Source: a virus
Lineage: Duplodnaviria; Caudoviricetes
Direction: 5' to 3' (one strand)
IMG/VR virus record: IMGVR_UViG_3300031992_000019
Length of the DNA stretch: 64,000 nt
Part shown: positions 2,070-17,384 of the stretch, in pieces
Layout: each line of letters opens with the position of its first letter
Numbering within the stretch: position 1 is the first letter of the stretch
The notes under the pieces: generated by a model
The model's input: only the letters and a program-made list of their open reading frames with translations
Databases searched by the model: none
Told to the model about the DNA's origin: nothing
Program-made: the position numbers and the translations under genes

Positions 2070-2387
2070 TTAGCCGTTAGAGGCTGCTTTTGCCTTGTCG
2101 GTGTTGTAATTCTCATACTGGCGATTCCAAGCACCCTTGTTGAGTTTTGAGAGATAGTTCCCGTAATCTCCTTGGACACCTCCAGTCTTTTCCACATCGT
2201 TCTTGAATGCCTTCGTGCCTATTATATTCTCGATATACTGGTCACGAATCCTCTGCGCCTTTTCAAACCTACCAATCCCCCGATTGTCATTTTCGTTGGC
2301 TATAAGCGAATTGGCGGCATTCATCCATATCCTCCCAAGCTGCGCATCTATGTCATTGATGGACTTTGTTCTTTTCCTTGTTGCCAT
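2070..2387 (-). CDS. MATR-family basic protein
   Basis: MATRKRTKSINDI..Q..RI; RDQYIENI; ends AASNG. Confidence 0.88.
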   Translation of the reverse strand: MATRKRTKSINDIDAQLGRIWMNAANSLIANENDNRGIGRFEKAQRIRDQYIENIIGTKAFKNDVEKTGGVQGDYGNYLSKLNKGAWNRQYENYNTDKAKAASNG

Positions 2388-2391
2388 AGCC

Positions 2392-2658
2392 TTATCCGTT
2401 AGAACCCGTCATATACGCCCTACGGGAGTATTTCGTTGCAGATGCAGTTCGCCAGTTCTGCGCGTTCTCGTTCTTGAAACGCGACTGCTTCTTGATGTTA
2501 GCGGAGTATTTCCTCTCCGCACCGATTGCCCTGTCGAGCATCTTGTTGTACCTCTCCTTCGAGATAGTGCCGTCCGAATATCGGTCGAGAACCAGCTTGT
2601 AGATTCTATCCGTCTGCTTGCGGATGTCATCCAGTGATTTCCTTCGTCTTGTTGCCAT
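2392..2658 (-). CDS. MATR-family basic protein
   Basis: MATRRRKSLDDIRKQ; KYSRRAYMTGSNG; promoter at 2675-2683. Confidence 0.88.
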   Translation of the reverse strand: MATRRRKSLDDIRKQTDRIYKLVLDRYSDGTISKERYNKMLDRAIGAERKYSANIKKQSRFKNENAQNWRTASATKYSRRAYMTGSNG

Positions 2659-2674
2659 AACTGTTTGTTTTTGC

Positions 2675-2745
2675 GCAAAGATAGTTAAAATTATCCTAAT
2701 TTTAGATTTGCTATTTGAAAACTATCGCACTTTGTGGTTTTGTGC
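2675..2745 (-). promoter_or_regulatory. Class A (late-type) promoter: GCAC-N11-GTGC box plus TATCTTTGC
   Basis: TATCTTTGC at 2683-2675, box at 2727-2745. Confidence 0.75.
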
Positions 2746-2748
2746 TAT

Positions 2749-2777
2749 AAAAGGCGGGAGTTCATCGCCCCCGCCCC
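2749..2777 (-). terminator. Intrinsic terminator
   Basis: Minus strand GGCGGGGG-CGATGAA-CTCCCGCC-TTTT. Confidence 0.65.
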
Positions 2778-2815
2778 CACAAACACACACTAATCACACT
2801 ATGAAGATTATATTT

Positions 2816-2845
2816 TTATCCTTTTCCTCCCTTGGCTTTCGCCAT
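2816..2845 (-). CDS. Micro-peptide MAKAKGGKG (9 aa)
   Basis: ATG GCG AAA GCC AAG GGA GGA AAA GGA TAA, just downstream of a MATR gene; ends in Gly. Confidence 0.4.
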   Translation of the reverse strand: MAKAKGGKG

Positions 2846-2856
2846 ATAGGTCTTTT

Positions 2857-3222
2857 TTATCCGTTTGACGCGGCTCTCGCCTTGTCAGTTGTATAATCTA
2901 CGTACTTTCGGTTAGACACCCTTTTGACAGCCTTATCCAGTCTTTCTTCTGCCGCGTCATATTTGTCCACTGGGCCTCTACCTCTATAATAGTTTCGCTC
3001 GCGTAATGCTCTGCTATGCTCTTCCATATCTTTTTGATGGATTGCGGTTTTCCTTATGTTGTTGAAATACCTTTGCGTAGCATTTTCGACCGCTTTGAGC
3101 CTCCTTGTTAATATTTGCTCATCTCCACCTTCTCGCCTCCTTTTATCTAAAAGTTCCGCGATTCTGGACTCTTGATTTCGCAAGTCTTCTAATGACTTTG
3201 CCCTTTTCTTTCTTGTTGCCAT
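2857..3222 (-). CDS. MATR-family basic protein
   Basis: MATRKKRAKSLEDL..Q..RI; RYFNNI; RKYVDY..ARAASNG. Confidence 0.88.
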   Translation of the reverse strand: MATRKKRAKSLEDLRNQESRIAELLDKRRREGGDEQILTRRLKAVENATQRYFNNIRKTAIHQKDMEEHSRALRERNYYRGRGPVDKYDAAEERLDKAVKRVSNRKYVDYTTDKARAASNG

Positions 3223-3247
3223 ATTGTTATCCTTTATTAAGTCCCAT

Positions 3248-3793
3248 TTAACCTACTATTAGAGATGATTTGCCTACAAGCGAGGAGATTCTTCTTTCAG
3301 TCACGTCACGCAGCATATTCTTTGTAGCGATAGTAACATTTGAAAGGGACTCCTTTAGGCTTGATATCCTCTTGTAGAACCCAGCAGTGTGCATTGTTTC
3401 TATCTTGAGGTATCTGGTGTCATAGTGATGCACAAACTCGTGTAGGAGTGTGTCGGCAAAACTCTTTATGGACACCTTCTTCCCAGTCTTGGCAGTGGTG
3501 TTATAGATGACAATGGAATCCTTTACCCCACCTCCGTGACGATAATACCCGTATGTCTGCCCACCTCCGCTACTTCTCCTCGGTCTTTCAGTCACATAGA
3601 CTTTTGGGGAATTTATCTTGTATTGCTTACACAAGTCATCGACCAGAGCTTGAGCAGCCTTTTGCCTACTGCCCTCGTCCTCCTTGGCTTCAAGCAGCTT
3701 TGAGAATAGCGATTTCTTGAATCGTTTCTTCTCAATGGTCTCTATGCTATTGCTCCTCTCATAGTCGGTCGATGTTGTCCTTCGCGTTGCCAT
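3248..3793 (-). CDS. MATR-tagged SprT-like zinc metalloprotease
   Basis: MATRR start; YGYY strand, DTLLHEFVHH (HExxH), downstream HTAGF; in-frame MGLNKG* follows the stop. Confidence 0.78.
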   Translation of the reverse strand: MATRRTTSTDYERSNSIETIEKKRFKKSLFSKLLEAKEDEGSRQKAAQALVDDLCKQYKINSPKVYVTERPRRSSGGGQTYGYYRHGGGVKDSIVIYNTTAKTGKKVSIKSFADTLLHEFVHHYDTRYLKIETMHTAGFYKRISSLKESLSNVTIATKNMLRDVTERRISSLVGKSSLIVG

Positions 3794-3794
3794 A

Positions 3795-4175
3795 TTAAGT
3801 TGTTCCTTGCGACTTGGATGCGGTGACGTACTTTGTCACATTGTCACGGAGTGCATTACTGCCCCTATCTACCGTGTCATACTTGGTATAGAGAAGACGC
3901 TTTGCGGTATTATTTCCGAGCCTACTCATATTGTAGAGCCTCTGCGCGGTATTCCCAGGCGAGAACTCTGGCTTGAGTCCTCCATCGGAGGCTTTGCTTA
4001 CATCAATCATAAGCCTACCTGCAGATGTCTTGTTCAGCCTCCTCTGCATCTCGTTGCCCAGTGCGCGGTTGATGCGGTTATAGTTGCGACTTCCGTACCT
4101 TGCCCCGTATGTTCTCTCCATACGATTAGACTGCTCTACCAAGTCGTTGATTGATTTCTTTCTTCGTGTTGCCAT
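3795..4175 (-). CDS. MATR-family basic protein
   Basis: MATRRKKSINDLVEQ; ends SQGTT. Confidence 0.87.
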   Translation of the reverse strand: MATRRKKSINDLVEQSNRMERTYGARYGSRNYNRINRALGNEMQRRLNKTSAGRLMIDVSKASDGGLKPEFSPGNTAQRLYNMSRLGNNTAKRLLYTKYDTVDRGSNALRDNVTKYVTASKSQGTT

Positions 4176-4177
4176 AA

Positions 4178-4477
4178 TTAACCTTTGTTTAACCCCCGAT
4201 AGGTGTTCGGGGAGTATTTCCTATTCAACTGCTTGCTGACGATTTCGTCCCTCTTGACACCCTCCGCGCCCGCGAACTTGTCATCAAGCCTACGGAAGGA
4301 CTTCGAGTTGGATATATTCCTCTGGTAGTTCCTCGCGGCGGTCAATGCCCTCCTATATCGCCTGTATATTGGAATGGCAATCTCATCGGGTTGGTTCGCT
4401 CCCCTACTCAATGCCATCGTCCTAATTCTTTCAAGCTGCGCCTCTATGTCGTTTACGGATTTCTTTCGTGTAGCCAT
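4178..4477 (-). CDS. MATR-family basic protein
   Basis: MATRKKSVNDIEAQLERI; RKYSPNTYRGLNKG. Confidence 0.88.
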   Translation of the reverse strand: MATRKKSVNDIEAQLERIRTMALSRGANQPDEIAIPIYRRYRRALTAARNYQRNISNSKSFRRLDDKFAGAEGVKRDEIVSKQLNRKYSPNTYRGLNKG

Positions 4478-4478
4478 A

Positions 4479-4775
4479 TTATCCTTTGTTTAGTCCAACC
4501 GCCTTGGTGGTGTCGGGATTGTTGTAGCCAGTATATTTCTGATTCAAGTTCCTCCACGCCCTCTTTCCGTATTCGGTCGGGGTGGCATCACCATTTCGAG
4601 CCTCCCTCACGCGGTTCAACAACCTTTTCCCAGTCTTGCTATTGTCTATGTTGTTCACATAGTTGGAATATATGCGGTTTATCCGCTCCGCTCTTTCGGG
4701 GGAGGGGCTGTAGTCATACAATAACCTACCGCGCTGAATGGATAGGTCGTTCTTGGATTTCGCTCGTGTCGGCAT
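4479..4775 (-). CDS. MATR-family basic protein (MPTR variant)
   Basis: Start reassigned to MPTRAKSKNDL (downstream of promoter 4797-4805); ends VGLNKG. Confidence 0.85.
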   Translation of the reverse strand: MPTRAKSKNDLSIQRGRLLYDYSPSPERAERINRIYSNYVNNIDNSKTGKRLLNRVREARNGDATPTEYGKRAWRNLNQKYTGYNNPDTTKAVGLNKG

Positions 4776-4796
4776 AACTTTTATTTTTTTTCTGCT

Positions 4797-4867
4797 GCAA
4801 AGATACACACTTATCATATTGTGCAATCAAATACCCATCCGATAGTTTGCACGATAAAAATTTGTGC
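4797..4867 (-). promoter_or_regulatory. Class A promoter
   Basis: TATCTTTGC 4805-4797, TTGATTG element, GCAC-N11-GTGC 4849-4867. Confidence 0.78.
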
Positions 4868-4872
4868 ATAAT

Positions 4873-4900
4873 GTAAACAATTTTCGGACTTGTGCGTTAT
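4873..4900 (+). promoter_or_regulatory. Class C promoter GTAAA-N17-CGTTAT
   Basis: One of five copies with an identical 17-nt spacer, each just upstream of an operon start. Confidence 0.72.
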
Positions 4901-4916
4901 AGAAGAAAAGAGAGTT

Positions 4917-5126
4917 ATGACAGTTTTAGAACAAGAACTTTTAACAATGGCAAAGAGTTTCTTTGCGCACTACAACAAAGAGGGACTGCGTGAGAGAGTA
5001 GCGACACAGGTCTTCTCCAATGTTTACGCGACTTATGACCACATCCCGAGTGAAGAACAGACAAAGAGGCTGGCATCCGAGGCGGTAAAGGCTGCGGACA
5101 TCCTCATTAAAGAGTTGGACAAATGA
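4917..5126 (+). CDS. Hypothetical phage protein
   Basis: ATG after A-rich leader; C-terminal AVKAADILIKEL; coupled to next ORF. Confidence 0.72.
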   Translation: MTVLEQELLTMAKSFFAHYNKEGLRERVATQVFSNVYATYDHIPSEEQTKRLASEAVKAADILIKELDK

Positions 5127-5518
5127 AAGAGATTATCGCTAACGACATCCTCAATTACATCGAGGATTCACTTAAAGGACTTTCCTTCAACGACTACACC
5201 GAGGTCGCCCTTATGGTGGGTGACAAGTTGGGCAACGCAATGATTAAGGACTTCAAGGCTTATGACAACATCCGCTCCAAGAGGATGGAACGGCTCGAAG
5301 CCGAAATCGCGAGACTCAAAGAAGAACTCGAAGAAGAGAAGGCAAAGAACGACCATCAGGAGAACTTCTACCTCTCCCAGATAGCCATCCACAACATCAA
5401 CACCGAGAACGCGCACCTCGTCAAAAGACAGAAGGACGCGATAACCAACATGAGAAGGTCTTACCGAGCCACCATCAAGGGACTCCAAGACCAGATTGAC
5501 AATTACAAGAATATATGA
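5123..5518 (+). CDS. Hypothetical coiled-coil protein
   Basis: ATGA coupling, heptad-rich. Confidence 0.72.
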   Translation: MKEIIANDILNYIEDSLKGLSFNDYTEVALMVGDKLGNAMIKDFKAYDNIRSKRMERLEAEIARLKEELEEEKAKNDHQENFYLSQIAIHNINTENAHLVKRQKDAITNMRRSYRATIKGLQDQIDNYKNI

Positions 5519-5600
5519 TTTTCTTCGCAATTACTGGCATCGTCTTCGGGTTATACATCTACTTGAAGGATGCGAGAAACTTTAATGAGTTTGATTGATT

Positions 5601-6724: not shown

Positions 6725-7501
6725 CTATCGCTTTGTTGGATGGTTCTGGCGAGATGTATAGTTCCAACCGAATCTCTTGGCTACCCTCTTGTTAAGTTCG
6801 TTGGCCATATATACATCAGTTCTATCAGTGACTTGGGCATCCCAACCCCTTCCTTTACGAATTAACTTCAATCGACCCCTTTGGTGCTCGTGTAATGCTA
6901 TCTCCTTTCCAAGTTTTGCCGCCTCTATTTCATAGGCTCTTTTTACTTGTGCAGGAGTTGCTCCCCATCCGTTTTTCGGTCGTTTGAAGGAGAAAGTAAA
7001 GGTAGGAGTTGCGGCACGCATTTCTGCCGCATTCCAAGCCACCGCAGAAATCATATCGTCTTTGCTGAATGAGTGCCCAATTCCACCGAATCCTTTTTTG
7101 CCTATTGACAAAGGATGGTTGTGAGTCAAAACGATATTCTTCTTGGCTCCGAGCATCATAAGGGCAAGTTGTTCATACTGGTTAGGCTCAACCTTATTGC
7201 CCTTTCCTTGTTTGCTAAAAAGTTTGTTGCCATTCTCATCAAAGACGTGAAGCTGCTCATCGTGAAGATTGCGAGTGTTTTCCTCTACATCTGATAATGC
7301 CTTCTTGAGACCCTCGCTATGACCTACCTCGGTGTCATGCTTGGAAAGTTCCCTTTTAGCCTTCATCTGGACACTTACCGATGGCTTCTCGTACTTTTTC
7401 TTCTTGTCGGAGGCATAGGACAGACTACCGAAGCCTATCTGCGGTTTCGTATAGACCTTCTTCGGTTTCTCCTTGCGATACTTGTAGATTCCTTCTGCCA
7501 T
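6725..7501 (-). CDS. Basic protein with JAB/MPN-like metallo-isopeptidase domain
   Basis: DEQLHVFDENG (upstream Glu) and VLTHNHP...SFSKDD (HxH..SxxD); Lys-rich N-terminus; last gene of a MATR operon. Confidence 0.7.
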   Translation of the reverse strand: MAEGIYKYRKEKPKKVYTKPQIGFGSLSYASDKKKKYEKPSVSVQMKAKRELSKHDTEVGHSEGLKKALSDVEENTRNLHDEQLHVFDENGNKLFSKQGKGNKVEPNQYEQLALMMLGAKKNIVLTHNHPLSIGKKGFGGIGHSFSKDDMISAVAWNAAEMRAATPTFTFSFKRPKNGWGATPAQVKRAYEIEAAKLGKEIALHEHQRGRLKLIRKGRGWDAQVTDRTDVYMANELNKRVAKRFGWNYTSRQNHPTKR

Positions 7502-7502
7502 A

Positions 7503-7862
7503 TTATCCTTGGTTTCTACCCATATAGGTGTTACGTGAATACTTGCGGTTCATCCTCTGCCAATAGTATTTTCCCGCCTTTTTCATTATTTTCCTATGCT
7601 TCTCCAACTCTTTGCGCTCCCAAGGTGTAGGTTCGTGGAAGATAAGGTCAATCTTACTGGCTCGGTTAAGTTCGCGATTTTCCTTCTCCCTCGCATTGCT
7701 CGCACTTTTCGTTCTTCGGATATTACCCGAATACCTAAACGTGATGCCCTCGGCACGCCTTGCCCTCTCTCTGCTACTTTCAGTGCCAAGTTCCTCGGCA
7801 AGCCTTTCTATTCGTGCCTGCTGTTCTATCAAGTCTTCTATTGACTTTTTACGTGTAGCCAT
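7503..7862 (-). CDS. MATR-family basic protein
   Basis: MATRKKSIEDLIEQQARI; RKYSRNTYMGRNQG. Confidence 0.88.
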   Translation of the reverse strand: MATRKKSIEDLIEQQARIERLAEELGTESSRERARRAEGITFRYSGNIRRTKSASNAREKENRELNRASKIDLIFHEPTPWERKELEKHRKIMKKAGKYYWQRMNRKYSRNTYMGRNQG

Positions 7863-7866
7863 AGTT

Positions 7867-8304
7867 TTAACCCGCTGAAAGTCCTTTTGATTTCCTTTTT
7901 GCCCTATACTCTGCGCGACTTGACGATGGAAGGGAGTTTATCACCGACCTTGCTTTCTCTGCGGAGTCAATCCCCCATTTGTTTGCATCAATGTCAAGCC
8001 GCTTTCCGTTGCGGAAAATCTCATAGGCATATTTATCTACCCTTTTGACCTCATATCCGTTATGGGAGAAATTGTTGGTGTTATAATCCCTATCAATGGC
8101 AGCTTTCGTCTTGGTTATATCAAACTGGTCACCGATATTCAGGTCGAGGCCTTCTCCATAAGGTGTTTCCACACTATACTGCCTACCGCCATCGGCTGAT
8201 ATGTTGCGTATAGTGTACCCCTTGTAATTCTCACTATAAGATGATGGGGAGATATAAGCCACATCCCCATCGTCACCGCTTGTAAGTCTAATTCGTCTTG
8301 CCAT
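7867..8304 (-). CDS. MATR-related protein (C-terminal tag only)
   Basis: MARR start; ends SSRAEYRAKRKSKGLSAG, as in 8713..9579. Confidence 0.8.
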   Translation of the reverse strand: MARRIRLTSGDDGDVAYISPSSYSENYKGYTIRNISADGGRQYSVETPYGEGLDLNIGDQFDITKTKAAIDRDYNTNNFSHNGYEVKRVDKYAYEIFRNGKRLDIDANKWGIDSAEKARSVINSLPSSSRAEYRAKRKSKGLSAG

Positions 8305-8617
8305 AGTCTAATATGTTATAACCCTCTTCAACGGAAATACCCAAGTCCTCACACCCACACTCAAAACCATAGTTGGTGAATGAGTCGGCATTGAACAAAC
8401 CATTGTCGCCATTGTGGACTTTCGGAAATCCGTTCTGCGTAAGAAATATGAGAACCGATGCACAAGTTGCTTCGTCTATGCTGACAAAAGGATTGAAAAC
8501 GAATCCCTCGCCATTCTTGAACTCAAATGCTTTCTCGCCATAGATGTTGTAGATTGCTCTACCCTTGATGATGTACTCATCATTGAAACACTTGTTGTAA
8601 ATAGTCTTGATGTTCAT
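8288..8617 (-). CDS. Hypothetical acidic protein with class B promoter
   Basis: TATCTTTGC 8653-8645 with TTGGAT boxes; overlaps next gene. Confidence 0.7.
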   Translation of the reverse strand: MNIKTIYNKCFNDEYIIKGRAIYNIYGEKAFEFKNGEGFVFNPFVSIDEATCASVLIFLTQNGFPKVHNGDNGLFNADSFTNYGFECGCEDLGISVEEGYNILDYGKTN

Positions 8618-8712: not shown

Positions 8713-9579
8713 TTAACCTGCTGATAATCCTTGCGCTCTTCTGCGTGCGCGATATTCCGCTCTTGAACTTGCCTTTGGTTTGGGTGCTCTCGGTGTGTCG
8801 ATGAGTTTCTGGGCATACCGCCTATCCTCGGCTTCGCGTTCCTTGTCGGCAATGGCACTCATAACGTCCTTGAGTTCGCTTGGTCGGATTCTCAAGTCGC
8901 TATGCCGTGTCCTTGTGCGCTCCCCATCAAAATAATGCTCCGCTGGGATGGTTTTACCCCTTTCAAGTTCATCAAGCGAGATAGCTTCGTCTCCGTCAGT
9001 AGAATCACCTTGCCAATAGACATTCGCCCAGTATCTTCCCTTGTTGTCTTGATAGACACTATCTATGCGATGATTCCAGTTGAACTTCGTGTCTATACGT
9101 CCCGTGCGCTTGTCAGGTTGAGAGGACACATACCGCTTCAAGGCATCCATTCCTCCGTTTCTTAATCTCTCGGAGTTGGTGTGTTCGCTTTCGGGGACTC
9201 TGTTAGACCTACGGAGTTCCCTCGCATAGGCATCCACATCACTCACGCCAGTTCGCGTGGCTCTATCCACCTTGAAATCGTCGTTGTAGGCAAGGGGAAT
9301 GCGGTCGTACCTTCTTTCGTAGCGATTCCACTCCTCGCGCACACTCGTTACTGGCGACTTCTTTCTTGTGGTGTTGAGATAGGAATTTGCAGTTCGTCCA
9401 GCATTCCTCACCCTTCGCTCCATATCGTAGGTGTGCGGATTGTAGTCATTGGTGTCCCGATAACCGCTCTCCCTCCACTTGCGTATCTGGGAATCGGTCA
9501 TACCGCCAAGCCTACCGATGCGCTCTATCTGCCTAACGATGTCGTTGTAGGACTTTCCCCTTTGTCTTGTCTTTGCCAT
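8713..9579 (-). CDS. Long MATR-family protein with internal cargo domain
   Basis: MAKTRQRGKSYNDIVRQIERI; ends SSRAEYRARRRAQGLSAG. Confidence 0.85.
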   Translation of the reverse strand: MAKTRQRGKSYNDIVRQIERIGRLGGMTDSQIRKWRESGYRDTNDYNPHTYDMERRVRNAGRTANSYLNTTRKKSPVTSVREEWNRYERRYDRIPLAYNDDFKVDRATRTGVSDVDAYARELRRSNRVPESEHTNSERLRNGGMDALKRYVSSQPDKRTGRIDTKFNWNHRIDSVYQDNKGRYWANVYWQGDSTDGDEAISLDELERGKTIPAEHYFDGERTRTRHSDLRIRPSELKDVMSAIADKEREAEDRRYAQKLIDTPRAPKPKASSRAEYRARRRAQGLSAG

Positions 9580-9723: not shown

Positions 9724-9793
9724 GCAAAGATACGCGATATTACATTCCCACAATCAATTTTCTTTCGTCAAGATGCACAATATCATTTTGTGC
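9724..9793 (-). promoter_or_regulatory. Class A promoter
   Basis: TATCTTTGC 9732-9724, TTGATTG, box 9775-9793. Confidence 0.78.
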
Positions 9794-10160
9794 GGAAATT
9801 CCTCACCATTTCGGCCAATCCGACACGCTTGAGGACATAAAGGAACTCATGGACATAGCGGACATGGATGCGCCAATCGTCATTGTTCTTCTCATAGACC
9901 TTGGAGTAGTACAACACCCCGCTCTCAAACCACCTGATACACGACCCACCAAATATCATCTCAACGAACGCGCCCTTGTCCGTAAACCCGTTCAACAAAA
10001 GCATTTCCCTCGTCAAAGGAATAGGCTCAAGCACCGACGCGTCATAGTTGTTCATGTTCTCGTCCGTGACCTCGTTGAAAGTGCCGTTGATACCGCACAC
10101 CACGATAGGTTTCCCCTTATAGGAGACCCTATCAAGATAACACAATTCAGTGATATTCAT
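9783..10160 (-). CDS. Hypothetical phage protein (EPIPLT..LL.NGF / YVHE type)
   Basis: Motifs common in Bacteroidota phage small proteins. Confidence 0.75.
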   Translation of the reverse strand: MNITELCYLDRVSYKGKPIVVCGINGTFNEVTDENMNNYDASVLEPIPLTREMLLLNGFTDKGAFVEMIFGGSCIRWFESGVLYYSKVYEKNNDDWRIHVRYVHEFLYVLKRVGLAEMVRNFRTK

Positions 10161-10497
10161 CTTCTACAAAATATTTGCAAATTATACCATTCTGCTCAAC
10201 AAAGAACTGGAAGGAGGCATTGAAATAGTTTGGTTTCGGATAGTTCTTATCCCAAGTGTTTCTGCCCATCTTTCCGTCTTGTTGGTTCTTTATATCCCTC
10301 ATCTCGGTCTTGTTGGACGCATAATGCAACCCCAATCTGTATCTGGCATAGAAAAGACACTTATTGCGGAGGTGACAATACCCGTTCACGCAGCTTATCC
10401 GCTTATCCTTAATCTTGTAGTCTTGCGGAAGGTCTATTGCCCTCACAAGTCCTTCATATTGCTGCCAGAAATACTCTAATGTTTCTTCATCATTCAT
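10147..10497 (-). CDS. Hypothetical protein
   Basis: Start reassigned to MNDEET (ATGA overlap); Cys cluster. Confidence 0.62.
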   Translation of the reverse strand: MNDEETLEYFWQQYEGLVRAIDLPQDYKIKDKRISCVNGYCHLRNKCLFYARYRLGLHYASNKTEMRDIKNQQDGKMGRNTWDKNYPKPNYFNASFQFFVEQNGIICKYFVEDEYH

Positions 10498-10799
10498 TTC
10501 TCTATCATTTTTAATGCAAGAGGCTTTTGGGAGACATCGGTCATCTTCTGTATCGCCCACCACCTCAAGAAATCTCGTGAAATATCTCTCTTCACCCACC
10601 GATTCGATGAGGAATACTCAAAAATCACGTCATAGCCGTGGTTCATGCCCAGACCTTCGTTGCTTATCTCGGCATAATCCACGACCCATAGTTTACCATC
10701 GGGACAGACCTTCTTGATATACATCACCTCGAAGGAGTATCTGTTTCTCTTGAAGATACAATCCCCGACACCTATCCTTTTAGCCTCTTCGCGGTTCAT
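10494..10799 (-). CDS. Hypothetical protein
   Basis: Operon continuity. Confidence 0.62.
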   Translation of the reverse strand: MNREEAKRIGVGDCIFKRNRYSFEVMYIKKVCPDGKLWVVDYAEISNEGLGMNHGYDVIFEYSSSNRWVKRDISRDFLRWWAIQKMTDVSQKPLALKMIEK

Positions 10800-11091
10800 G
10801 CTCTTCGAGATATTCTATGAGGAGTTCACCCCGTTCCTTTATGTCTTGGATGGTTTCAAGTATATCCACCGCCAAGTCCTTGTCATCCTCATCGGAGGAA
10901 CACAATAGTTCGTCAGCAAGGCTCTTGACCATCTCGGATGTCTTTATGTACGCATCCAGCAACAGGACAAGGGCATTGTGGCTTTTCAGTTTGCCGCCCT
11001 TGACCTTATCCAAGCATTGCGTCTCCATCTCGTTGTAGCCATTGAGCATAGCCTCGGAGGTGTGACGCAGTTTATATCCGCTATCCGTCAT
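10780..11091 (-). CDS. Hypothetical protein
   Basis: First gene after a class C promoter. Confidence 0.72.
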   Translation of the reverse strand: MTDSGYKLRHTSEAMLNGYNEMETQCLDKVKGGKLKSHNALVLLLDAYIKTSEMVKSLADELLCSSDEDDKDLAVDILETIQDIKERGELLIEYLEEHEPRRG

Positions 11092-11102
11092 ACTTTTCTT
11101 TT

Positions 11103-11130
11103 ATAACGGACAAAAGGGCATTTTCTTTAC
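11103..11130 (-). promoter_or_regulatory. Class C promoter GTAAA-N17-CGTTAT
   Basis: gtaaa gaaaatgcccttttgtc cgttat on the minus strand. Confidence 0.72.
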
Positions 11131-11162
11131 GTGTATTGCAAGATAATCGTTTGATTTAATGT

Positions 11163-11453
11163 TTACGATGCAAGGATGTTCTTTCGCTCTTCGGGGGAGA
11201 GTTCTATCTTCAGCCGTTGCCCGAAGATGTCCCAGAGTTCTACCTCTTTGCCCCCGATGATGTCCATCATCCCGAAGGGAGTGTCGGCTTCTGCCTCGAA
11301 ATAGTCCTTCTCGACTATCGTCAGCAGAATCCTCTCGTTTTCGAGCCGTACCGCGTCTATTTCAGCCAAGGGTACATTTCTACCGCCCACAAGGTAAAAC
11401 CCCTCAAAAACGGCATCTATCGGCTTGTACGAGCCTTTAACCTTCGCGTTCAT
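11163..11453 (-). CDS. Hypothetical protein
   Basis: Start MNAKVKG; weakly resembles 11771..12124. Confidence 0.62.
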   Translation of the reverse strand: MNAKVKGSYKPIDAVFEGFYLVGGRNVPLAEIDAVRLENERILLTIVEKDYFEAEADTPFGMMDIIGGKEVELWDIFGQRLKIELSPEERKNILAS

Positions 11454-11739
11454 ACAACTCGAAGTGGATATCGTCCACAAGGGACTTGATTCGGGACTCG
11501 TACTCTTCGTCATTCTCTTCTCGCTCGTGGGTGAGCCACACCTCGCGCAGATGGGTCATGAACTCGACTTTCCAGCCTACAAACGCACCGAAGAACGCGG
11601 AAAGGTTTCCAGCATCTTCGGGCAAATCGGACACCTCAAATTTCTTGATGTCCTCGACTCTTTCTCTCTTCACCTCTTCGGGTGTGAGACGGGCAAGGCA
11701 CTCTTGTACCTCGCCCTCTGGGTAGTTGTACTCTATCAT
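11437..11739 (-). CDS. Hypothetical acidic protein
   Basis: Start MIEYNYP. Confidence 0.65.
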   Translation of the reverse strand: MIEYNYPEGEVQECLARLTPEEVKRERVEDIKKFEVSDLPEDAGNLSAFFGAFVGWKVEFMTHLREVWLTHEREENDEEYESRIKSLVDDIHFELYEREG

Positions 11740-11770
11740 ATTAAAAAGCGATATAGTTAAAGGCGGTTGG

Positions 11771-12124
11771 TTAGACCGCCATACCCTTGATTTTCTTGTT
11801 AGCTTTCTCACACTCACCGAACTCGACCTCGAAGGTGTTGCCGAAGTTGTCGGTAGCCTCGCCCGAAACAAGGTTGAACCCGATGATGTGGTTGTCGGCT
11901 ATGTCAGCACCGCCATTTGCCACAATCTCGAACTCGCCAGACTCGCCAATTACGTCTAAAATGTATTCGGGGTACTCGCCATCTATTGTGAAGCCATCTA
12001 CCTCGAAGTCATCTACCCATACCTTCTTGATGTTCTCTATGGGGACAATCTTGCCCTCGATGATGTAACTTTCTTCGCCAGTGACCTCGATGTTGCGCCA
12101 CTCATTGTTTACTAATGCCTTCAT
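11771..12124 (-). CDS. Highly acidic early protein
   Basis: Start MKALVNNEW after class B promoter TACATTTGC 12194-12186; D/E-rich. Confidence 0.72.
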   Translation of the reverse strand: MKALVNNEWRNIEVTGEESYIIEGKIVPIENIKKVWVDDFEVDGFTIDGEYPEYILDVIGESGEFEIVANGGADIADNHIIGFNLVSGEATDNFGNTFEVEFGECEKANKKIKGMAV

Positions 12125-12291
12125 ATTAAGAGGTATTACTCGGGTACGTTGCCCGCTCGGTCGCAAGACTGATTCTTTTGACACCGCAAATGTACGATAT
12201 TATATTGGATTAAGCAAGATTATTTTATAGTTTTATCCAATATATGTATAGTTTTAACCAATATTAACGCGATTTGTAATGTCCAATAGAC

Positions 12292-12348: not shown

Positions 12349-12927
12349 TTAACCAGTTGATACTGCGCGGTAGGGTGCTGGACGACCGTTGCCGCGTCCT
12401 GTGAGTGCGGTGATTTCGTCCTCGGATGCTCCGTTTGCCCTCAATGTGGCTTCGAGCCTTGCGAGTGCTTCGGGTGAACGCTTGTCGTTGTTCAAGCCTA
12501 CCCTTACGTAATAGTCGCGCTGGCGGCGGTTGGCTTCGCTTGTCATCCTTCCGTTTTCGCCCTTGCGTGTGCCGCTCTGCCTCTTGTTGCCCTTGGAGTC
12601 GAGAACTGCCGTTCCGTCATCGTTCTTCGGGGTGAAGAGGTTGGTCTTGGCGTTCTTGGTGTCCGTTCCAATGAGCCTTCCGTTCTCATCGCGCTTGGCT
12701 ACCGCCAGTTTGCCGCCCTTTGAGGTGGTGGAGTCTGCGGTGTACCTTCCGTCCTGATAGTTCTGGTTCATTGCGCCCATAGAGGAACGTCCATCGGTAC
12801 GGGTGTGGTAAGGAGTGTTGCCGACCTTCGTCACGTTATAGTGCTTGACCTTGACACCCTTGCCCCTCAACTTCTCGTCGAGTTTCTGCCCGAGTTCTGC
12901 TGTCCTTTTCGGTTTTCGTGTTGCCAT
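12349..12927 (-). CDS. Long MATR-family basic protein
   Basis: MATRKPKR; NRRQRDYYVRVGL; ends RAVSTG; own class A promoter. Confidence 0.85.
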   Translation of the reverse strand: MATRKPKRTAELGQKLDEKLRGKGVKVKHYNVTKVGNTPYHTRTDGRSSMGAMNQNYQDGRYTADSTTSKGGKLAVAKRDENGRLIGTDTKNAKTNLFTPKNDDGTAVLDSKGNKRQSGTRKGENGRMTSEANRRQRDYYVRVGLNNDKRSPEALARLEATLRANGASEDEITALTGRGNGRPAPYRAVSTG

Positions 12928-12955
12928 ATTATTTAGTTAATTTAAGTTTCACGCT

Positions 12956-13026
12956 GCAAAGATAGGGGTTTATTCCTCTTCGCAATCATTTTCATCCGTT
13001 TCACTTTGCACTATTCTTTGTTGTGC
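12956..13026 (-). promoter_or_regulatory. Class A promoter (box lies inside the 3' end of the PP-loop gene)
   Basis: TATCTTTGC 12964-12956, TGATTG, TTGCAC-N11-GTGCAA with core 13008-13026. Confidence 0.78.
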
Positions 13027-13707
13027 AAGTTTCCTTCTCTCCGCTTCGTCATACTCAAAGAGAATAGTCCTCGCAAACGGAAAGACTTCGTAGATTTTCA
13101 GCAGGTCTTGGGGGTAGTTCTCCCTCAACCAGAGAAAGCAGTCCTTCGAGAATCCCACACCCGATGATGCCTTTAACGAGTACCTCACGGGTTCGGGGAT
13201 GCCCCTATTCTTCATATACAAAAGAATCTCCTTCTGCGTCCAGCTCGCCAACGGATAGACCAGACCCTTGTTGATGTAGTCGCTCTCCTTGTAGGTGTTG
13301 AGCATAAGCCTTCGGTTCATCGAGTCGGCTTTCTTCATACCCAAGAAGACATACTCCACATTATAGGTCAGCCTTATCGTCTTTATCACGTCGTCCAACT
13401 TAATCAACTTGACATTCGGGTCGGGTGCGCAGTAGAGTCCGCTCCTCAATACATAACTTAACGTCCAATGGGGGATTTCCACGAACTCTATATTCGGATA
13501 TCTCGCCTTCGTCCAGTTTATCCATCTTTGGATGTGGTCTAACCCCTTGACGAAATACATGAAGAAACACACTATCCTATTGAATTTCGGATAGCACAAG
13601 TCCAAGGTCACGAGGGAGTCCTTTCCTAACGACAGTCCTATCGCTATCGTGTCGGTCTGCTCCCTCACCTTGTCAATGACCAGATTGGCTTCTTGCAGCT
13701 TGTTCAT
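12970..13707 (-). CDS. PAPS-reductase-like PP-loop (adenine nucleotide alpha hydrolase) protein
   Basis: GLSLGKDS PP-loop, GMKKADSMNRR, YPLASWTQKEI. Confidence 0.88.
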   Translation of the reverse strand: MNKLQEANLVIDKVREQTDTIAIGLSLGKDSLVTLDLCYPKFNRIVCFFMYFVKGLDHIQRWINWTKARYPNIEFVEIPHWTLSYVLRSGLYCAPDPNVKLIKLDDVIKTIRLTYNVEYVFLGMKKADSMNRRLMLNTYKESDYINKGLVYPLASWTQKEILLYMKNRGIPEPVRYSLKASSGVGFSKDCFLWLRENYPQDLLKIYEVFPFARTILFEYDEAERRKLAQQRIVQSETDENDCEEE

Positions 13708-13910
13708 CCCACACCCATATAAGTGGTTCGCGAATACTTCTTGTCATACGCATCCCTCCCCTTGAATGAAGGGTGCTTGATGATGTTGTCCGTGTATCGG
13801 TCTGCCGCAATGTTCGCCCTGTCCACACGTTCCTTGGTGGCGCGTGGGTGGTTCTCAATCCTCTCTGCTTGCGCGAGGATGTCGGAAAAACTTTTCTTTC
13901 GTGTTGCCAT
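13704..13910 (-). CDS. Minimal MATR-family protein between ParB-like and PP-loop genes
   Basis: MATRKKSFSDILAQAERI..RYTDNI..KKYSRTTYMGVG; overlaps both neighbours. Confidence 0.88.
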   Translation of the reverse strand: MATRKKSFSDILAQAERIENHPRATKERVDRANIAADRYTDNIIKHPSFKGRDAYDKKYSRTTYMGVG

Positions 13911-14731
13911 TACTCTTCGTCTTCAAATGAATCGTCAACCAGTGGTTCGCATCGCATCTCGAAGTCCTCCCCCTTGATTGTACGGCTATAAGGGTCGTAG
14001 TTGAATTTCTGGCAGAAGGCGGCTTTCGCGTTGAAGGTGGAGAAACTCAACACGAGGAAGGCATCCATATTCTGCGCGTTCTCGACGGCTTGCTCACGGA
14101 CTTGCTGCTTGACATCCTTCATGTGCTGCACCCTCTGCTCCCTCGTCATCTCCTCCTGTGCAAGTCTTTCGGCTTCCTTTGAGGCTTCGCGGATGGCGGC
14201 TCTCTCGGCTTTCTCCTGCTCATGCTGCTCGTTTACTGGAGCCATAAGGTCATCCAAGGCATTTCGCGTGTCTGACTGCCCAGCCGTCTTGTAGAGGTCT
14301 TCCAAGCCAATCATTGAAAGGTCGGCTTCGGTGAGTCCAGCATCCTTGTAGTCGATGTCGGGAACGATGGCGGCTAACTTGTCGAAGTCCCACTGCCCTT
14401 GCGCGTTGGGGTTGTTCAAGAGGATAAGGAGCGCATCCGCATCCTTCTTGTCCAAGTCCACCACATCGCAGCGAATCTTGTAGTCGGTTTCGGGTGTGCC
14501 GTCGTACTTCTGAATCTCGTCCATGATGGTGAGTCGCTGGTGTCCAGAGAGGAGCGTGTAGCCGTACCTCTTGTTTACAACGATACCTCCCACCAGACCG
14601 AACTTCTTGATGCCCCTCTTGAGCTTCTTCTTGGATTCGGGGTCGATACGTCTTGGGTTGTTCTCGCTGAATTGGATTTCGGAGCGCATCAGTTCGATGT
14701 TCTCCGAGGTGAAAAGTTCTGATAGTTGCAT
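13910..14731 (-). CDS. ParB/Srx N-terminal domain protein
   Basis: NPRRI, KKFGLVGGIVVN, LLSGHQRL, LNNPNAQGQWD. Confidence 0.88.
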   Translation of the reverse strand: MQLSELFTSENIELMRSEIQFSENNPRRIDPESKKKLKRGIKKFGLVGGIVVNKRYGYTLLSGHQRLTIMDEIQKYDGTPETDYKIRCDVVDLDKKDADALLILLNNPNAQGQWDFDKLAAIVPDIDYKDAGLTEADLSMIGLEDLYKTAGQSDTRNALDDLMAPVNEQHEQEKAERAAIREASKEAERLAQEEMTREQRVQHMKDVKQQVREQAVENAQNMDAFLVLSFSTFNAKAAFCQKFNYDPYSRTIKGEDFEMRCEPLVDDSFEDEE

Positions 14732-14751
14732 TGTGTTTGTGTATTTAGTGA

Positions 14752-15024
14752 TTAACCTTCGTTTCCAGCACGCGCGGAGTAAGACCGCTTGGTCTCATAA
14801 GCCTTGTTCACGGCTTGCCCAGGCATCATACCGCTCTCCACGTTACGTTTGTACTCCCTCTTGACCCTTTCCGAGTTGTTGATGTTTGAAACGTACCTTT
14901 GGGCGATGGCTTTTGCCCTCTTGAGCCACGGGTTGTTGGAGTCATAGTTCTCCACCGCGTTCTCCGCAATCCTGTTGTACTGGTCTATGATGTCCTTTGC
15001 GGACTTTCTCCTACGTGTTGCCAT
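14752..15024 (-). CDS. MATR-family basic protein
   Basis: MATRRRKSAKDIIDQYNRI; RYVSNI; ends AGNEG. Confidence 0.88.
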   Translation of the reverse strand: MATRRRKSAKDIIDQYNRIAENAVENYDSNNPWLKRAKAIAQRYVSNINNSERVKREYKRNVESGMMPGQAVNKAYETKRSYSARAGNEG

Positions 15025-15025
15025 A

Positions 15026-15304
15026 TTATCCTACTCCCATATAAGTTGAACGGGAATACTTCTTCGTGTTGATTTTCGCGATGTCCTCAAAGCTCGCGTT
15101 CTCGCCTTGGCTGGCTACATTCCTATAACCGCTCTGCTTGGCGATGTTTGCCGCATACCTCTTATATGCGTCCTTGATGCGCTTATCCCTCGCGTCAAGC
15201 ACCGCAGCTTGTGACGGGTCTTGCACCCACCTCCTATTTATCGCATTGCGAATCCTCAATGTCTGGTTGATGAGGTCATCCAAAGATTTCTTTCTTGTTG
15301 CCAT
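15026..15304 (-). CDS. MATR-family basic protein
   Basis: MATRKKSLDDL; KKYSRSTYMGVG. Confidence 0.88.
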   Translation of the reverse strand: MATRKKSLDDLINQTLRIRNAINRRWVQDPSQAAVLDARDKRIKDAYKRYAANIAKQSGYRNVASQGENASFEDIAKINTKKYSRSTYMGVG

Positions 15305-15305
15305 A

Positions 15306-15602
15306 TTATCCGTTGCTCAATGCCCTCGTTGTCGATGCGTTCTGATAACCCGTGTACTTCTTGCGATAGCCTTCTGCTGCGATAGTCCCGTAGGTCTGAC
15401 TCATAGGTAATATCGTTTTTTTGAGCAGATTCTTCTGGCTTCTCGTACCCACGATGTTCTCGCGATACTTGTCACTGATGTCGTATGCGCGGAGTGCCCT
15501 ATTATAGGCGCGTGGTGTACCAAGTTTTATTGCGAGTGCTCCAATACGCAGCCTCTGTCTGGTAATATCTTCCAGTGACTTTGCTCTTTTTCTTGTTGCC
15601 AT
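15306..15602 (-). CDS. MATR-family basic protein
   Basis: MATRKRAKSLEDI; ends ALSNG. Confidence 0.88.
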   Translation of the reverse strand: MATRKRAKSLEDITRQRLRIGALAIKLGTPRAYNRALRAYDISDKYRENIVGTRSQKNLLKKTILPMSQTYGTIAAEGYRKKYTGYQNASTTRALSNG

Positions 15603-15604
15603 AA

Positions 15605-15928
15605 TTAGCCTCCGTTTTTACCCATGTAGGTGGATTGTGAATACTTGCGGTTGCGATAAGCATCATAAAACCTATCTGCATCCTCGTAGTTCTTGTTCTT
15701 ACGGGCTTCCTCATACTTAGCCATCATCTTACGGACATAAGGAGACCGCTTGATGATGTTTCGAGTATAATGAGGTTGTGTGAGTGCATTGTATTCCCTA
15801 TTACGGGTGCGATTCAATGCCTCCTCGTCATTGTTCCTCTCGTAACGACCTTGTAATTCCGCCGAAAGGTCTTCTATACGATGCCGTTGGTCAATAATGT
15901 CCTGAATGGATTTCTTTCTCGTTGCCAT
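15605..15928 (-). CDS. MATR-family basic protein
   Basis: Start reassigned to MATRKKSIQDIIDQ; RKYSQSTYMGKNGG. Confidence 0.88.
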   Translation of the reverse strand: MATRKKSIQDIIDQRHRIEDLSAELQGRYERNNDEEALNRTRNREYNALTQPHYTRNIIKRSPYVRKMMAKYEEARKNKNYEDADRFYDAYRNRKYSQSTYMGKNGG

Positions 15929-15929
15929 A

Positions 15930-16346
15930 TTATCCTTGTGATAAACCTTGTGACTTGCGGCTTTCTCGGTATAGTTTCCGTTGTGCCGCACGATACGTGT
16001 TGTTAAGTTCACTCTCCGATGCCTCAGACTTGAACCGCCAAGTCCCGTTTGCGCCGTACTCCGTCTTGAGGTTGGTATTCAACCCTTGTCGGGTGGCTGC
16101 GTTGTTAAGCATCCTCCATAGGCGTTGACGTTCAATGTCCGCTTTCCTCTCGTTTCTCAAGGTCCGGTTGTACTCGGCTCTCGCCCCTCGCGCCCTACCC
16201 TTCTTGTTGGTGAACGCATCCCTCAAGTCCCGATGAAAAGTGTTGTTGATTCTGCGGTTTCCCGTCAAATCGCCTGCATAAAGCATATTTACAAGCCTTT
16301 CATATTGCGCTTGTTTCTCGGCTCTCGTCTTTTTTCTCGTTGCCAT
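15930..16346 (-). CDS. MATR-family basic protein
   Basis: MATRKKTRAEKQAQYERL; ends KSQGLSQG. Confidence 0.87.
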   Translation of the reverse strand: MATRKKTRAEKQAQYERLVNMLYAGDLTGNRRINNTFHRDLRDAFTNKKGRARGARAEYNRTLRNERKADIERQRLWRMLNNAATRQGLNTNLKTEYGANGTWRFKSEASESELNNTYRAAQRKLYRESRKSQGLSQG

Positions 16347-16352
16347 AATAGT

Positions 16353-16400
16353 TTACTTTCCGCAACCCTTGCCTTTGCCCTTACCTTTCTTCTTGCACAT
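16353..16400 (-). CDS. Micro-peptide MCKKKGKGKGKGCGK (15 aa)
   Basis: Fills the gap between two MATR genes with 4- and 6-nt spacers. Confidence 0.6.
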   Translation of the reverse strand: MCKKKGKGKGKGCGK

Positions 16401-16404
16401 AGTT

Positions 16405-16761
16405 TTAAGTGTTTGAGTTAGACTTCGATGCTATGCCCATTCGCTGCTCACGGGTAGCCGATGCTCCCTTGTAGGCTGCGAAAGCCACGTTATCTCCATA
16501 CCCCGCTGCTCGCGCGGTGTTCCTTTCGTAGTTGTCACGCGCATTGCGCACACGCGCCATCCTTTCACCCAACTGGTTGGTTCGGGCGACTGAACGCCCA
16601 TATCCCCTCGCCTCCCAAGGGCTGCGGTAGTTTCTCCGATACTCGGCTTCTACACCCCTCTGGAAGTCCTTCCTTGCTCCCCACTCCCTATCAAGGCTGG
16701 TGAGAATCCTATTGGCTTGCTCGGTGATTTGCTGAATAGTTTTCCTTCGTCTTGTTGCCAT
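16405..16761 (-). CDS. MATR-family basic protein
   Basis: MATRRRKTIQQITEQANRI; ends SNSNT. Confidence 0.87.
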   Translation of the reverse strand: MATRRRKTIQQITEQANRILTSLDREWGARKDFQRGVEAEYRRNYRSPWEARGYGRSVARTNQLGERMARVRNARDNYERNTARAAGYGDNVAFAAYKGASATREQRMGIASKSNSNT

Positions 16762-16762
16762 A

Positions 16763-17119
16763 TTACCCGTTACTTGCGGCTTTCGCTGCGTTAGTGTTAT
16801 AGTTCACATACTTGCGGTTGTCCATCTTGTCGTAGTACCGATAGGCTTTTTCATCCTCATCCCAATATTTTTCTTCGTTGTCATCCATAAACGCCTCGTA
16901 TTTCGCCGCTTGTGCCTTATTAACCCTTTGCAGGTCGCGCTGGAAAGTGGATGAACCAGTAATGTTGTTGTTATACTCCCTTGCTATGTTACGCGCCCTT
17001 TCCAATCTTCCTTGGTTGCGCTCCCTTTCCCTTGCATAGGGTGAAGTTGCGAGTAACTTGATTCTTGCAACTTGTCGCCTTATGTCAGCGAGGGATTTCT
17101 GCCTTTTCCGTGTTGCCAT
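16763..17119 (-). CDS. MATR-family basic protein
   Basis: MATRKRQKSLADI; RKYVNYNTNAAKAASNG. Confidence 0.88.
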   Translation of the reverse strand: MATRKRQKSLADIRRQVARIKLLATSPYARERERNQGRLERARNIAREYNNNITGSSTFQRDLQRVNKAQAAKYEAFMDDNEEKYWDEDEKAYRYYDKMDNRKYVNYNTNAAKAASNG

Positions 17120-17123
17120 AACT

Positions 17124-17384
17124 TTATGTGTTAGAACCCGCTGCGGTGGCTCTCGTGTAGATTTCCTTGTCGAACTTCCTATCGAGCCTATCCTCTACGG
17201 GGGTGTTCTTGTTTTCCCTATCTATCGCGTTGTTTATGTTGTTGCGATACCTGTTCGCGATTCTCTCAACCCTCCTGTTCCACCTTTCTATGCGGTGTCT
17301 GTCCGCACTCTTCGGGTCAACTGGTCGGATGAGCCTCTGCATCTGCTCGAACAAGTCCCTTATGGATTTTCGTCTTGTTGCCAT
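17124..17384 (-). CDS. MATR-family basic protein
   Basis: Start reassigned to MATRRKSIRDLFEQ; ends AAGSNT. Confidence 0.87.
   Translation of the reverse strand: MATRRKSIRDLFEQMQRLIRPVDPKSADRHRIERWNRRVERIANRYRNNINNAIDRENKNTPVEDRLDRKFDKEIYTRATAAGSNT

Follow-up and report, generated by a model that had tools for sequence, protein, structure and literature searches.

Glycine-tailed basic proteins beside a PP-loop/ParB-like gene pair in a rumen phage: candidate clients of this module

Upstream of its terminase small subunit gene (terS), a rumen phage carries a long array of genes for small basic proteins, most of which begin with MATR and end in glycine. Which of these two ends is the shared, portable element, and what might it serve? 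The window analysed here, a stretch of 64,000 nucleotides, corresponds to bases 77836-141835 of the single 165,288-bp virus record IMGVR_UViG_3300031992_000019. A preliminary description of this DNA, made from the sequence alone, had treated the proteins as one family of 22 members in which both termini act as sorting or processing signals. Our analyses show that the portable shared element is the C-terminal glycine tail, which is also present on unrelated bodies, and that its constant companion is a gene pair encoding a PP-loop enzyme and a ParB-like protein; the N-terminus, on the other hand, belongs to the fold. From gene order and motif conservation we tentatively propose that the MATR proteins are clients of this PP-loop/ParB module through their glycine tail, a reading that we favour while giving it somewhat less than an even chance.

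The array consists of 20 minus-strand open reading frames (ORFs) within 2070-17384, and two more ORFs, at 40257-40724 (+) and 40799-41164 (-), adjoin an integrase-like gene and bring the set to 22. Seventeen proteins start with MATR[RK], 19 end in Gly and three (3795-4175, 16405-16761 and 17124-17384) end in Thr, which reproduces the counts given before. All 22 have an isoelectric point (pI) between 9.2 and 11.2, and all except one are free of cysteine. Elsewhere in the genome, 9 of the ~254 predicted ORFs of the record end in Gly, and we estimate that far fewer than one MATR[RK] start per genome would be expected by chance. The codons for the Ala, Thr and Arg residues of MATR and for the Ser of the tail (TCN or AGY) differ synonymously. 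Selection therefore acts on the protein, as the preliminary description had argued.

A profile built from 17 of the window proteins matched the same 17 and one divergent 18th copy outside the window, a 68-aa protein (genome 72847-73053, minus strand; E 1e-7) that starts with MRAKSIKDIWRQ.., ends with ..RIGQ and is encoded ~3 kb downstream of the portal gene (L024:12847-13053). This profile is self-built, and independent support for it comes from a metagenome profile search and from the family tree. The profile did not match 3248-3793, 7867-8304, 12349-12927 or 40799-41164, and for 8713-9579 it gave a weak, sub-threshold match to the N-terminal part only. Judged by profile, the set is made up of 17 (+1) true paralogues and five proteins that share only a terminus, so that the idea of a single family of 22 holds for the 17 homologous proteins and not for the other five.

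To see how the two ends relate to the rest of the protein, we used an AlphaFold2 model of the product of 15026-15304, for which 93 homologues served as input. The model (predicted local distance difference test, pLDDT, 96; predicted template modelling score, pTM, 0.81) consists of a helical hairpin (residues 8-28 and 30-55), three short helices and one short strand pair. The KSxxDIxxQxxRI stretch forms helix 1, residues 5-6 (KK) pair with residues 83-84 (YS) of the C-terminal KYS strand, and the variable parts of the fold are the hairpin tip and the stretch past helix 2. The N-terminus, the RYxxNI end of helix 2 and the KYSxxTYMG segment are thus predicted to form one structural core, from which only the last 3-5 residues of the modelled domain would stick out; the last three are coil with a lower pLDDT and are probably exposed. 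The earlier suggestion that the N-terminus is a tag or signal does not agree with this model: being paired with the KYS strand in the core of the fold, it would not be a free tag.

The modelled fold is confidently predicted and appears to be new. A Foldseek search of the model against the PDB gave no match with E < 3, a fold search of BFVD returned only uncharacterised gut-phage proteins, and VIA-align found generic helical hairpins only (Z <= 6.1); among these, no solved or predicted viral structure of known function resembled the model. Likewise, scans of the MATR proteins against Pfam, PHROGs and NCBIfam gave no match, and no PDB sequence matched the family profile with E < 0.5. No described family was thus matched. 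No known nucleoid or DNA-binding family (HU/IHF, ribbon-helix-helix, helix-turn-helix etc.) was matched in the Pfam, PHROG, NCBIfam, PDB-sequence and Foldseek searches, VIA-align again giving only generic hairpins, and from their charge the MATR proteins may bind DNA.

The C-terminal tail has a much wider distribution than the family. We fetched 80 IMG/VR loci that encode the PP-loop protein, and only three of them contain MATR genes. Yet in all 13 assessable clusters (grouped at 90% enzyme identity) the PP-loop gene is accompanied by a small, very basic ORF, which in most cases ends immediately ahead of it; in four further clusters the upstream sequence was too short to judge. The micropeptides measured have a pI near 12, and end with ..RVSFGLSGG, ..RLSLGLSAG, ..RRSLGMSGG, ..RAGLGMSSG, ..RAALGTSSG, ..RFALSNG or ..RRLRRG. 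The family profile matched none of the PP-loop-adjacent micropeptides, and one neighbour carries the N-terminal motif of the family. The motif of their tail, (Q)RYxx(V/L)RxxxG[LM]SxG, recurs in the window in the ..EYRAKRKSKGLSAG-type tails of 7867-8304, 8713-9579, 15930-16346 and 40799-41164, and it is close to KYSRxTYMGLSNG of the core family. Hence, a Y..R...G[LM]SxG tail is shared by folded MATR proteins, micropeptides and proteins with unrelated bodies.

Two window proteins illustrate this. The middle of 8713-9579 belongs to a ~240-aa family whose other members lack both termini. The SprT-like zincin (3248-3793) is the only unrelated protein that carries MATRR, and its homologues are without it. 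The phage subgroup of the SprT-like zincins gained a Gly-ended extension, and directly past the stop codon of the window gene (window 3227-3247, minus strand) an in-frame MGLNKG followed by a stop equals the family tail. It looks as if the stop codon of the SprT-like gene had recently truncated a zincin that used to have the tail.

The same pattern is encountered in other phages. The cultured phages BS-TP2 and RAP44 contain the same module together with homologous portal and terminase large subunit (terL) genes, without the MATR family. Gene product gp53 of Bacteroides phage BS-TP2, encoded just upstream of the PP-loop gene, is a 53-aa Arg/Gly-rich protein that ends with ..GANGSNG. The Lactobacillus phages LR1 and JNU_P7 encode basic proteins of 123-141 aa between the PAPS-like and ParB-like genes; two of these begin with MARQR or MARKK, and their ends are ..GKSSG, ..GSKGG and ..GSRGG. 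We considered homology of these Lactobacillus phage proteins to MATR proteins, and hhalign found none. A variation on the module was seen in 42 of the 80 loci (L081-L125), on gut phage contigs of 50-220 kb, where two PP-loop genes surround one ParB-like gene and a 74-aa peptide with a pI of 12 and the end ..RRLRRG is encoded ahead of the first PP-loop gene.

MATR loci in other phages were searched for with a narrow alignment and with a DNA pattern. In ~20 other-phage loci, family genes are located on the same strand in or beside a group of PAPS-reductase-like PP-loop, ParB-like, terS, terL and portal genes, with 1-9 family copies per locus and stops and starts that often overlap. A PP-loop gene is present in every inspectable MATR-bearing record of at least 20 kb. 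In the window, the 68-aa member (13704-13910) overlaps both its neighbours end to start, the ParB-like gene (13910-14731) on one side and the PP-loop gene (12970-13707) on the other, and it occupies the slot that in other phages is held by a micropeptide. The strongest context of the family is its constant link to the PP-loop and ParB-like genes, rather than a link to the prohead protease. IbrA/IbrB-type pairs of PAPS-reductase-like and ParB-like genes are common before phage terminase genes, and the window has the same two-gene core in the same place (profile matches in Table 1). In the papers reached by our searches we found none on the MATR family and no mention of a client protein of the PAPS/ParB pair; a client family, and its 22-fold expansion, would be the new part here.

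The neighbourhood of terS deserves separate attention. Wherever a locus has sufficient flank, no more than ~1.5 kb separates the last family gene from terS downstream of it, and in one locus a family copy is located between terS and terL. In a complete 129-kb relative it is ParB and terS that adjoin the array, the PP-loop gene being located 14 kb from it and lacking an adjacent peptide. Such an arrangement would suit packaging cofactors, which would bind DNA as partners of ParB or terS, mark or condense it for the terminase, and dock by their tail onto ParB, terS or portal. We consider this very unlikely, since some 20 divergent paralogues and strain-level turnover of cassettes are hard to square with a core role in packaging, and since BS-TP2 and RAP44 do without the family despite their homologous terL and portal.

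What could a PP-loop enzyme do with a glycine tail? The phage enzyme keeps the SxGxDS motif (SLGKDS) and matches PF01507 (PAPS_reduct); no QueC model was matched. Its structural model (pLDDT 85) gave fold matches with E values of 1e-7 to 1e-5, none standing out, to NcsA, TtuA, the TtuA-TtuB complex 5gha, TilS, LarE, FAD synthase, CysD, APS reductase and NAD synthetase. Among them are several that adenylate a carboxylate or carbonyl group. We envisage that each MATR protein is a compact, helical, basic domain from which a short G-[LM]-S-x-G tail with a free glycine carboxylate protrudes, and that this tail would make it a client of the PP-loop enzyme and ParB-like pair encoded at the head of the packaging operon. 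The enzyme may dock the glycine tail in the way that TtuA receives the tail of TtuB, or may activate the tail carboxylate with ATP, as LarE, NAD synthetase and QueC do with carboxylate substrates. Basic and probably able to bind nucleic acids, the proteins would then be coupled late in infection to a target that could be phage DNA, a nucleotide or a virion component. The phage would in this way offer one enzyme ~22 different clients, a few of them with enzyme-like bodies.

A more specific version can be formulated as a conjugation system, in which the PF01507 enzyme and the ParB-like protein would activate the tail glycine with ATP and link the proteins covalently to phage DNA or nucleotide, for example to a base amine, during packaging. 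The ~22 adducts or cargo proteins would shield the injected DNA, and the ASCH-type amidohydrolase often encoded just upstream would be the eraser. This chain of steps is, in our opinion, quite improbable.

Several known systems resemble parts of the proposal that MATR proteins are clients. TtuA-TtuB and NcsA/Ncs6-Urm1 are alike in that a PP-loop enzyme receives, in its active site, the exposed C-terminal glycine of a small protein, and it is NcsA, TtuA and the complex 5gha that are among the matches of the phage enzyme model. The sulfur carriers ThiS, MoaD, TtuB and Urm1 have an exposed glycine as their last residue; so do 19 of the 22 proteins here and 142 of 155 homologues, where exposure is predicted from the model. 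They differ in that they are beta-grasp proteins with a Gly-Gly end that are first activated by an E1-like enzyme, whereas the MATR proteins are very basic, carry a G[LM]SxG end and are modelled as helical, with five helices and one short strand pair instead of a beta-grasp. No E1-like (ThiF/MoeB) gene was seen among the phage proteins scanned, which cover part of the genome; the adjacent gene encodes the PP-loop enzyme instead.

Repurposed PP-loop enzymes that modify a glycine at the flexible end of an adjacently encoded partner also exist in bacterial defence. The QueC-family enzymes of Cap9-CdnD (type IV cyclic-oligonucleotide-based antiphage signalling system, CBASS) and QatC-QatB modify the N-terminal glycine of a protein (bioRxiv 10.1101/2025.04.06.647259; PMC13279940). 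Those systems are of the QueC family, use an N-terminal amine and a deazaguanine, serve host defence and have a single client, whereas the phage enzyme belongs to PF01507. The N-terminal glycine motif essential in QatB and CdnD has no equivalent in the MATR proteins, which start with MA[TRK]R or MP and have their conserved glycine at the C-terminus. By analogy, prochlorosin-type ribosomally synthesized and post-translationally modified peptides (RiPPs) would be comparable in that many paralogous substrates with conserved recognition parts share one nearby enzyme; these are leader-core peptides, whereas the MATR proteins are folded proteins of 70-190 aa.

Present on micropeptides in the majority of the carrier phages examined, and on a folded family in others, the tail gives the PP-loop/ParB pair a candidate substrate; the contribution of the window is the folded client family, expanded to ~22 genes. 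Should the tail be activated with ATP, it would represent a new modification of a protein end used by viruses, the counterpart of the N-terminal glycine modification in bacterial defence. The array would then be a natural client library that could show the purpose of the system, be it DNA protection, packaging or effector delivery. And if the tail is inert, the family would still be a large uncharacterised group of gut and rumen phage proteins with a confidently predicted new fold.

A number of points weigh against this proposal. The evidence for it consists of gene order and motif conservation, from which interaction, chemistry, target and timing are all derived. To our knowledge, PF01507 enzymes do not act on proteins, and the protein-modifying PP-loop enzymes that we know of are of another clade (QueC) and target an N-terminal glycine. 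Riemerella phage RAP44 has only a 44-aa basic ORF with the end ..KANGAI, and a Thr end is present in three window members and in 7 of 155 homologues. From the layout of the 129-kb genome, the partner of the tail could be ParB, terS or portal, and the region upstream of terS is also a general hot spot for accessory genes, which could explain part of the synteny. Finally, the terminal glycine might only close the fold against the basic N-terminus.

A full profile search with the family of 1.84 billion representatives yielded 341 representative metagenome clusters at a cut-off of E <= 0.001, and nearly all of the matches listed are free-standing proteins, 73-166 aa long. The consensus of the matches reads MA(T)RKKSxxDIxxQxxRI ... 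RYxxNI ... RKYSxxTYMGLSNG. The termini are conserved in homologues, too: among the homologues listed, 142 of 155 (92%) end exactly at Gly, which means that the position of the stop codon is itself conserved, and the same number start with MA or MP; seven end in Thr. The family was found in 1 of 401 Bacteroidales genomes searched. The carrier is a metagenome-assembled genome (MAG) that was already known as such, with seven copies on one 41-kb contig that also holds terS, terL and portal. In INPHARED, which contains cultured phages, neither a DNA match nor a tblastn match was obtained for the queried protein. We conclude that the MATR family is phage-borne, undescribed, and forms a large group in gut and rumen phages.

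In the family tree, which is poorly resolved and based on a quick search only, the 17 window copies are scattered like shuffled labels, and the nearest homologue of each is on another contig. The copies are therefore old paralogues and not the product of a recent burst; within the resolution of this tree, the scatter rules out recent tandem duplication. The ratios of nonsynonymous to synonymous substitution rates (dN/dS) of three orthologue pairs were 0.11, 0.13 and 0.44; portal, terS and the 258-aa neighbour gave 0.07-0.25, and no positive selection was seen in the three pairs. These ratios and the age of the paralogues do not support the diversifying pressure that had been put forward to explain the expansion. 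A close relative, L030, whose flanks are 83-96% identical at the DNA level, has a different set of cassettes beside terS and lacks 7503-8617. Thus, each gene is held by purifying selection while the cassette repertoire turns over. In three other loci (L032:3094-3533, L039:5039-5478 and L040:2057-2333) family copies are split over two overlapping frames, which could be pseudogenes, sequencing errors or frameshift sites.

This pattern would also be produced by intracellular accessory proteins, active in anti-defence or host takeover, that bind nucleic acids or acidic host proteins and gather upstream of terS, with Gly and MATR having a purely structural role. Cassettes are gained and lost among close relatives while orthologues are under purifying selection, the paralogues are old and divergent, and the two members beside the integrase gene have their own promoters. 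The N- and C-termini pack together in the model, and the family, missing from the other 400 Bacteroidales genomes sampled and from cultured relatives that keep the module, is dispensable. What this explanation does not account for is that unrelated micropeptides have an identical tail, that the corresponding slot of Lactobacillus phages holds Gly-ended proteins, and that there is translational coupling between the ParB-like and PP-loop genes. We therefore find it doubtful.

Transcription signals provide some information on timing. The genome contains 34 copies of the motif located ahead of the clusters, TATCTTTGC(R)G; the genes behind them are of many kinds, and we take the motif to be the usual Bacteroidota TAnnTTTG -7 box. 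The clusters had been assigned to a promoter class shared with lysis and tail genes; as the motif is a general -7 box, we rejected such a "late promoter class", which gives no timing. Strong terminators were found at 12328-12297 and 6504-6478, and a hairpin near 2750-2790. From ~2683 onwards, a unit comprises two family genes and then terS, terL and portal, with neither a promoter motif nor a terminator in between. From this position, at least two family genes are probably expressed together with the packaging proteins, and late expression is plausible.

These features recall the model put forward in the preliminary description, according to which the MATR proteins are late internal or ejection proteins that are packed with the DNA, their termini being capsid-targeting or processing signals and their diversity serving counter-defence after injection, without a role for the PP-loop enzyme. 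The proteins are basic, and the packaging operon contains or adjoins their genes, two of which are, by position, co-transcribed with terS, terL and portal. Zincin and ParB domains, both encoded in this neighbourhood, are domain types tied to packaged early effectors (Iyer et al. 2017, PMC5512222). In addition, strains with 83-96% DNA identity differ in the cassettes that they contain, and the number of copies rises with genome size, from 1-3 in contigs of ~20-50 kb to ~22 in the 165-kb genome. T4 internal proteins and phiKZ-like inner-body proteins are alike in that several small basic proteins share a terminal sequence and vary between strains. The T4 targeting sequence, however, is a cleavable N-terminal tag on unrelated bodies, whereas the modelled MATR N-terminus is core of the fold and not detachable, and the portable element is C-terminal. 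Only one unrelated protein has MATRR, which is absent from the homologues of that protein. No cleavage motif and no link to the S49 prohead protease, encoded ~35 kb away, was found, and the model leaves unexplained why the same tail is present on micropeptides that abut the PP-loop gene in phages without the family. For these reasons we judge this model unlikely, while packaging into the virion may occur and would be compatible with MATR proteins being clients of the PP-loop/ParB module.

Table 1. Genes of the MATR set and of the adjoining module (window coordinates).
Feature	Position	Strand	Evidence
Core member, 86 aa, MATRR..GSNT, first gene past promoter ~17406	17124..17384	-	family profile
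Core member, 118 aa, tail ..AAKAASNG	16763..17119	-	family profile, tree
Core member, 118 aa, end ..SNSNT	16405..16761	-	family profile
Core member, 138 aa, tail ..YRESRKSQGLSQG; bridges core family and GLSAG-tail proteins	15930..16346	-	family profile
Core member, 107 aa, tail ..KYSQSTYMGKNGG	15605..15928	-	family profile
Core member, 98 aa, tail ..TTRALSNG	15306..15602	-	family profile, tree
Core member, 92 aa, tail ..KYSRSTYMGVG; protein modelled	15026..15304	-	family profile, pLDDT 96, pTM 0.81
Core member, 90 aa, tail ..ARAGNEG	14752..15024	-	family profile
ParB-like, 273 aa, stop overlaps start of next family gene	13910..14731	-	phrog_9353 2.6e-75, phrog_620 8e-21, weak ParB_N
Smallest core member, 68 aa, ..KYSRTTYMGVG, between ParB-like and PP-loop genes	13704..13910	-	family profile
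PP-loop enzyme, PAPS_reduct, SLGKDS motif, 245 aa	12970..13707	-	PF01507 8e-9, phrog_424 4e-21, fold match
Basic protein, 192 aa, MATRKPK.., tail ..YRAVSTG, own promoter; terminator 12328-12297 downstream	12349..12927	-	no family-profile match
Hybrid, 288 aa: family-like N-terminus MAKTRQRGKSYNDIVRQIERI, tail ..EYRARRRAQGLSAG, middle domain from unrelated ~240-aa family	8713..9579	-	weak N-terminal match
145-aa protein, only tail ..EYRAKRKSKGLSAG in common	7867..8304	-	tail
Core member, 119 aa, tail ..KYSRNTYMGRNQG	7503..7862	-	family profile
Core member, 98 aa, start MPTRAKS, tail ..AVGLNKG, first past promoter ~4805	4479..4775	-	family profile; dN/dS 0.11
Core member, 99 aa, tail ..NTYRGLNKG	4178..4477	-	family profile; dN/dS 0.44
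Core member, 126 aa, end ..SQGTT	3795..4175	-	family profile
SprT-like zincin (HEFVHH), start MATRR, end ..LIVG; in-frame MGLNKG past stop	3248..3793	-	termini
Core member, 121 aa, tail ..KARAASNG; hairpin terminator ~2750-2790 downstream	2857..3222	-	family profile
Core member, 88 aa, tail ..YMTGSNG, first gene of unit reaching terS	2392..2658	-	family profile; dN/dS 0.13
Core member, 105 aa, tail ..KAKAASNG, 112 nt upstream of terS	2070..2387	-	family profile
Terminase small subunit (terS); terL and portal next, beyond window start	1217..1957	-	phrog_309 7e-25
Core member with N-terminal extension, 155 aa, tail ..AKVLNEG, own promoter, beside integrase gene	40257..40724	+	family profile
Basic 121-aa protein, only tail ..EYREHRKAQGLSAG in common, own promoter	40799..41164	-	tail

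The record as a whole contains two head- or packaging-like gene sets, at genome 24967-43096 and 75877-79792. The first includes a tape-measure protein, the S49 prohead protease (genome 42233-43096) and a weak terL-like ORF of 583 aa; the second is the terS-terL-portal group that adjoins the MATR array. A 2073-aa protein (genome 146799-153020) also contains a tape-measure-like region. Genome positions 1-350 and 165169-165288 repeat three blocks of the internal region 45832-47566 with 99-100% identity, consistent with a genome that is circular or permuted and has a segment duplicated, or with an assembly that was joined via a repeat. Given the two head/packaging gene sets and these end repeats, the assembly deserves a check. 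We infer the host from the promoter type and the one MAG.

Some additional genes of the window and of related loci were noted. The protein encoded by 24884-25378 (minus strand; 164 aa, own promoter) is homologous (E 8.5e-36) to acidic proteins of 120-130 aa encoded ahead of the micropeptide and PP-loop genes in 30 of the 80 other loci. Its counterpart in BS-TP2 is labelled ASCH by the depositors, and a Pfam ASCH match was obtained for that of Lactobacillus phage JNU_P7 only; 24884-25378 itself has no Pfam match. The basic 258-aa protein encoded by 6725-7501 (minus strand) is conserved in the same neighbourhood in L010, L013, L030 and L031. Its earlier assignment as a JAB isopeptidase was made on a motif alone and is rejected, as no JAB, MPN or RadC profile and no PDB entry was matched. 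Between two parts of the array, at 9783-12184 (minus strand), there are seven small non-family genes, and L030 is 83% identical to this DNA. The terL of L030 (11637-14921) and of L031 (11164-14448) is a 1094-aa protein with an intein containing Hint and homing-endonuclease domains, and the terL homologue beside the window has 564 aa and is intein-free. Lastly, a 147-bp inverted repeat with 92% identity is formed by window positions 18407-18552 (+) and 54929-55075 (-), and its first arm falls within a 785-aa ORF (18125-20482).

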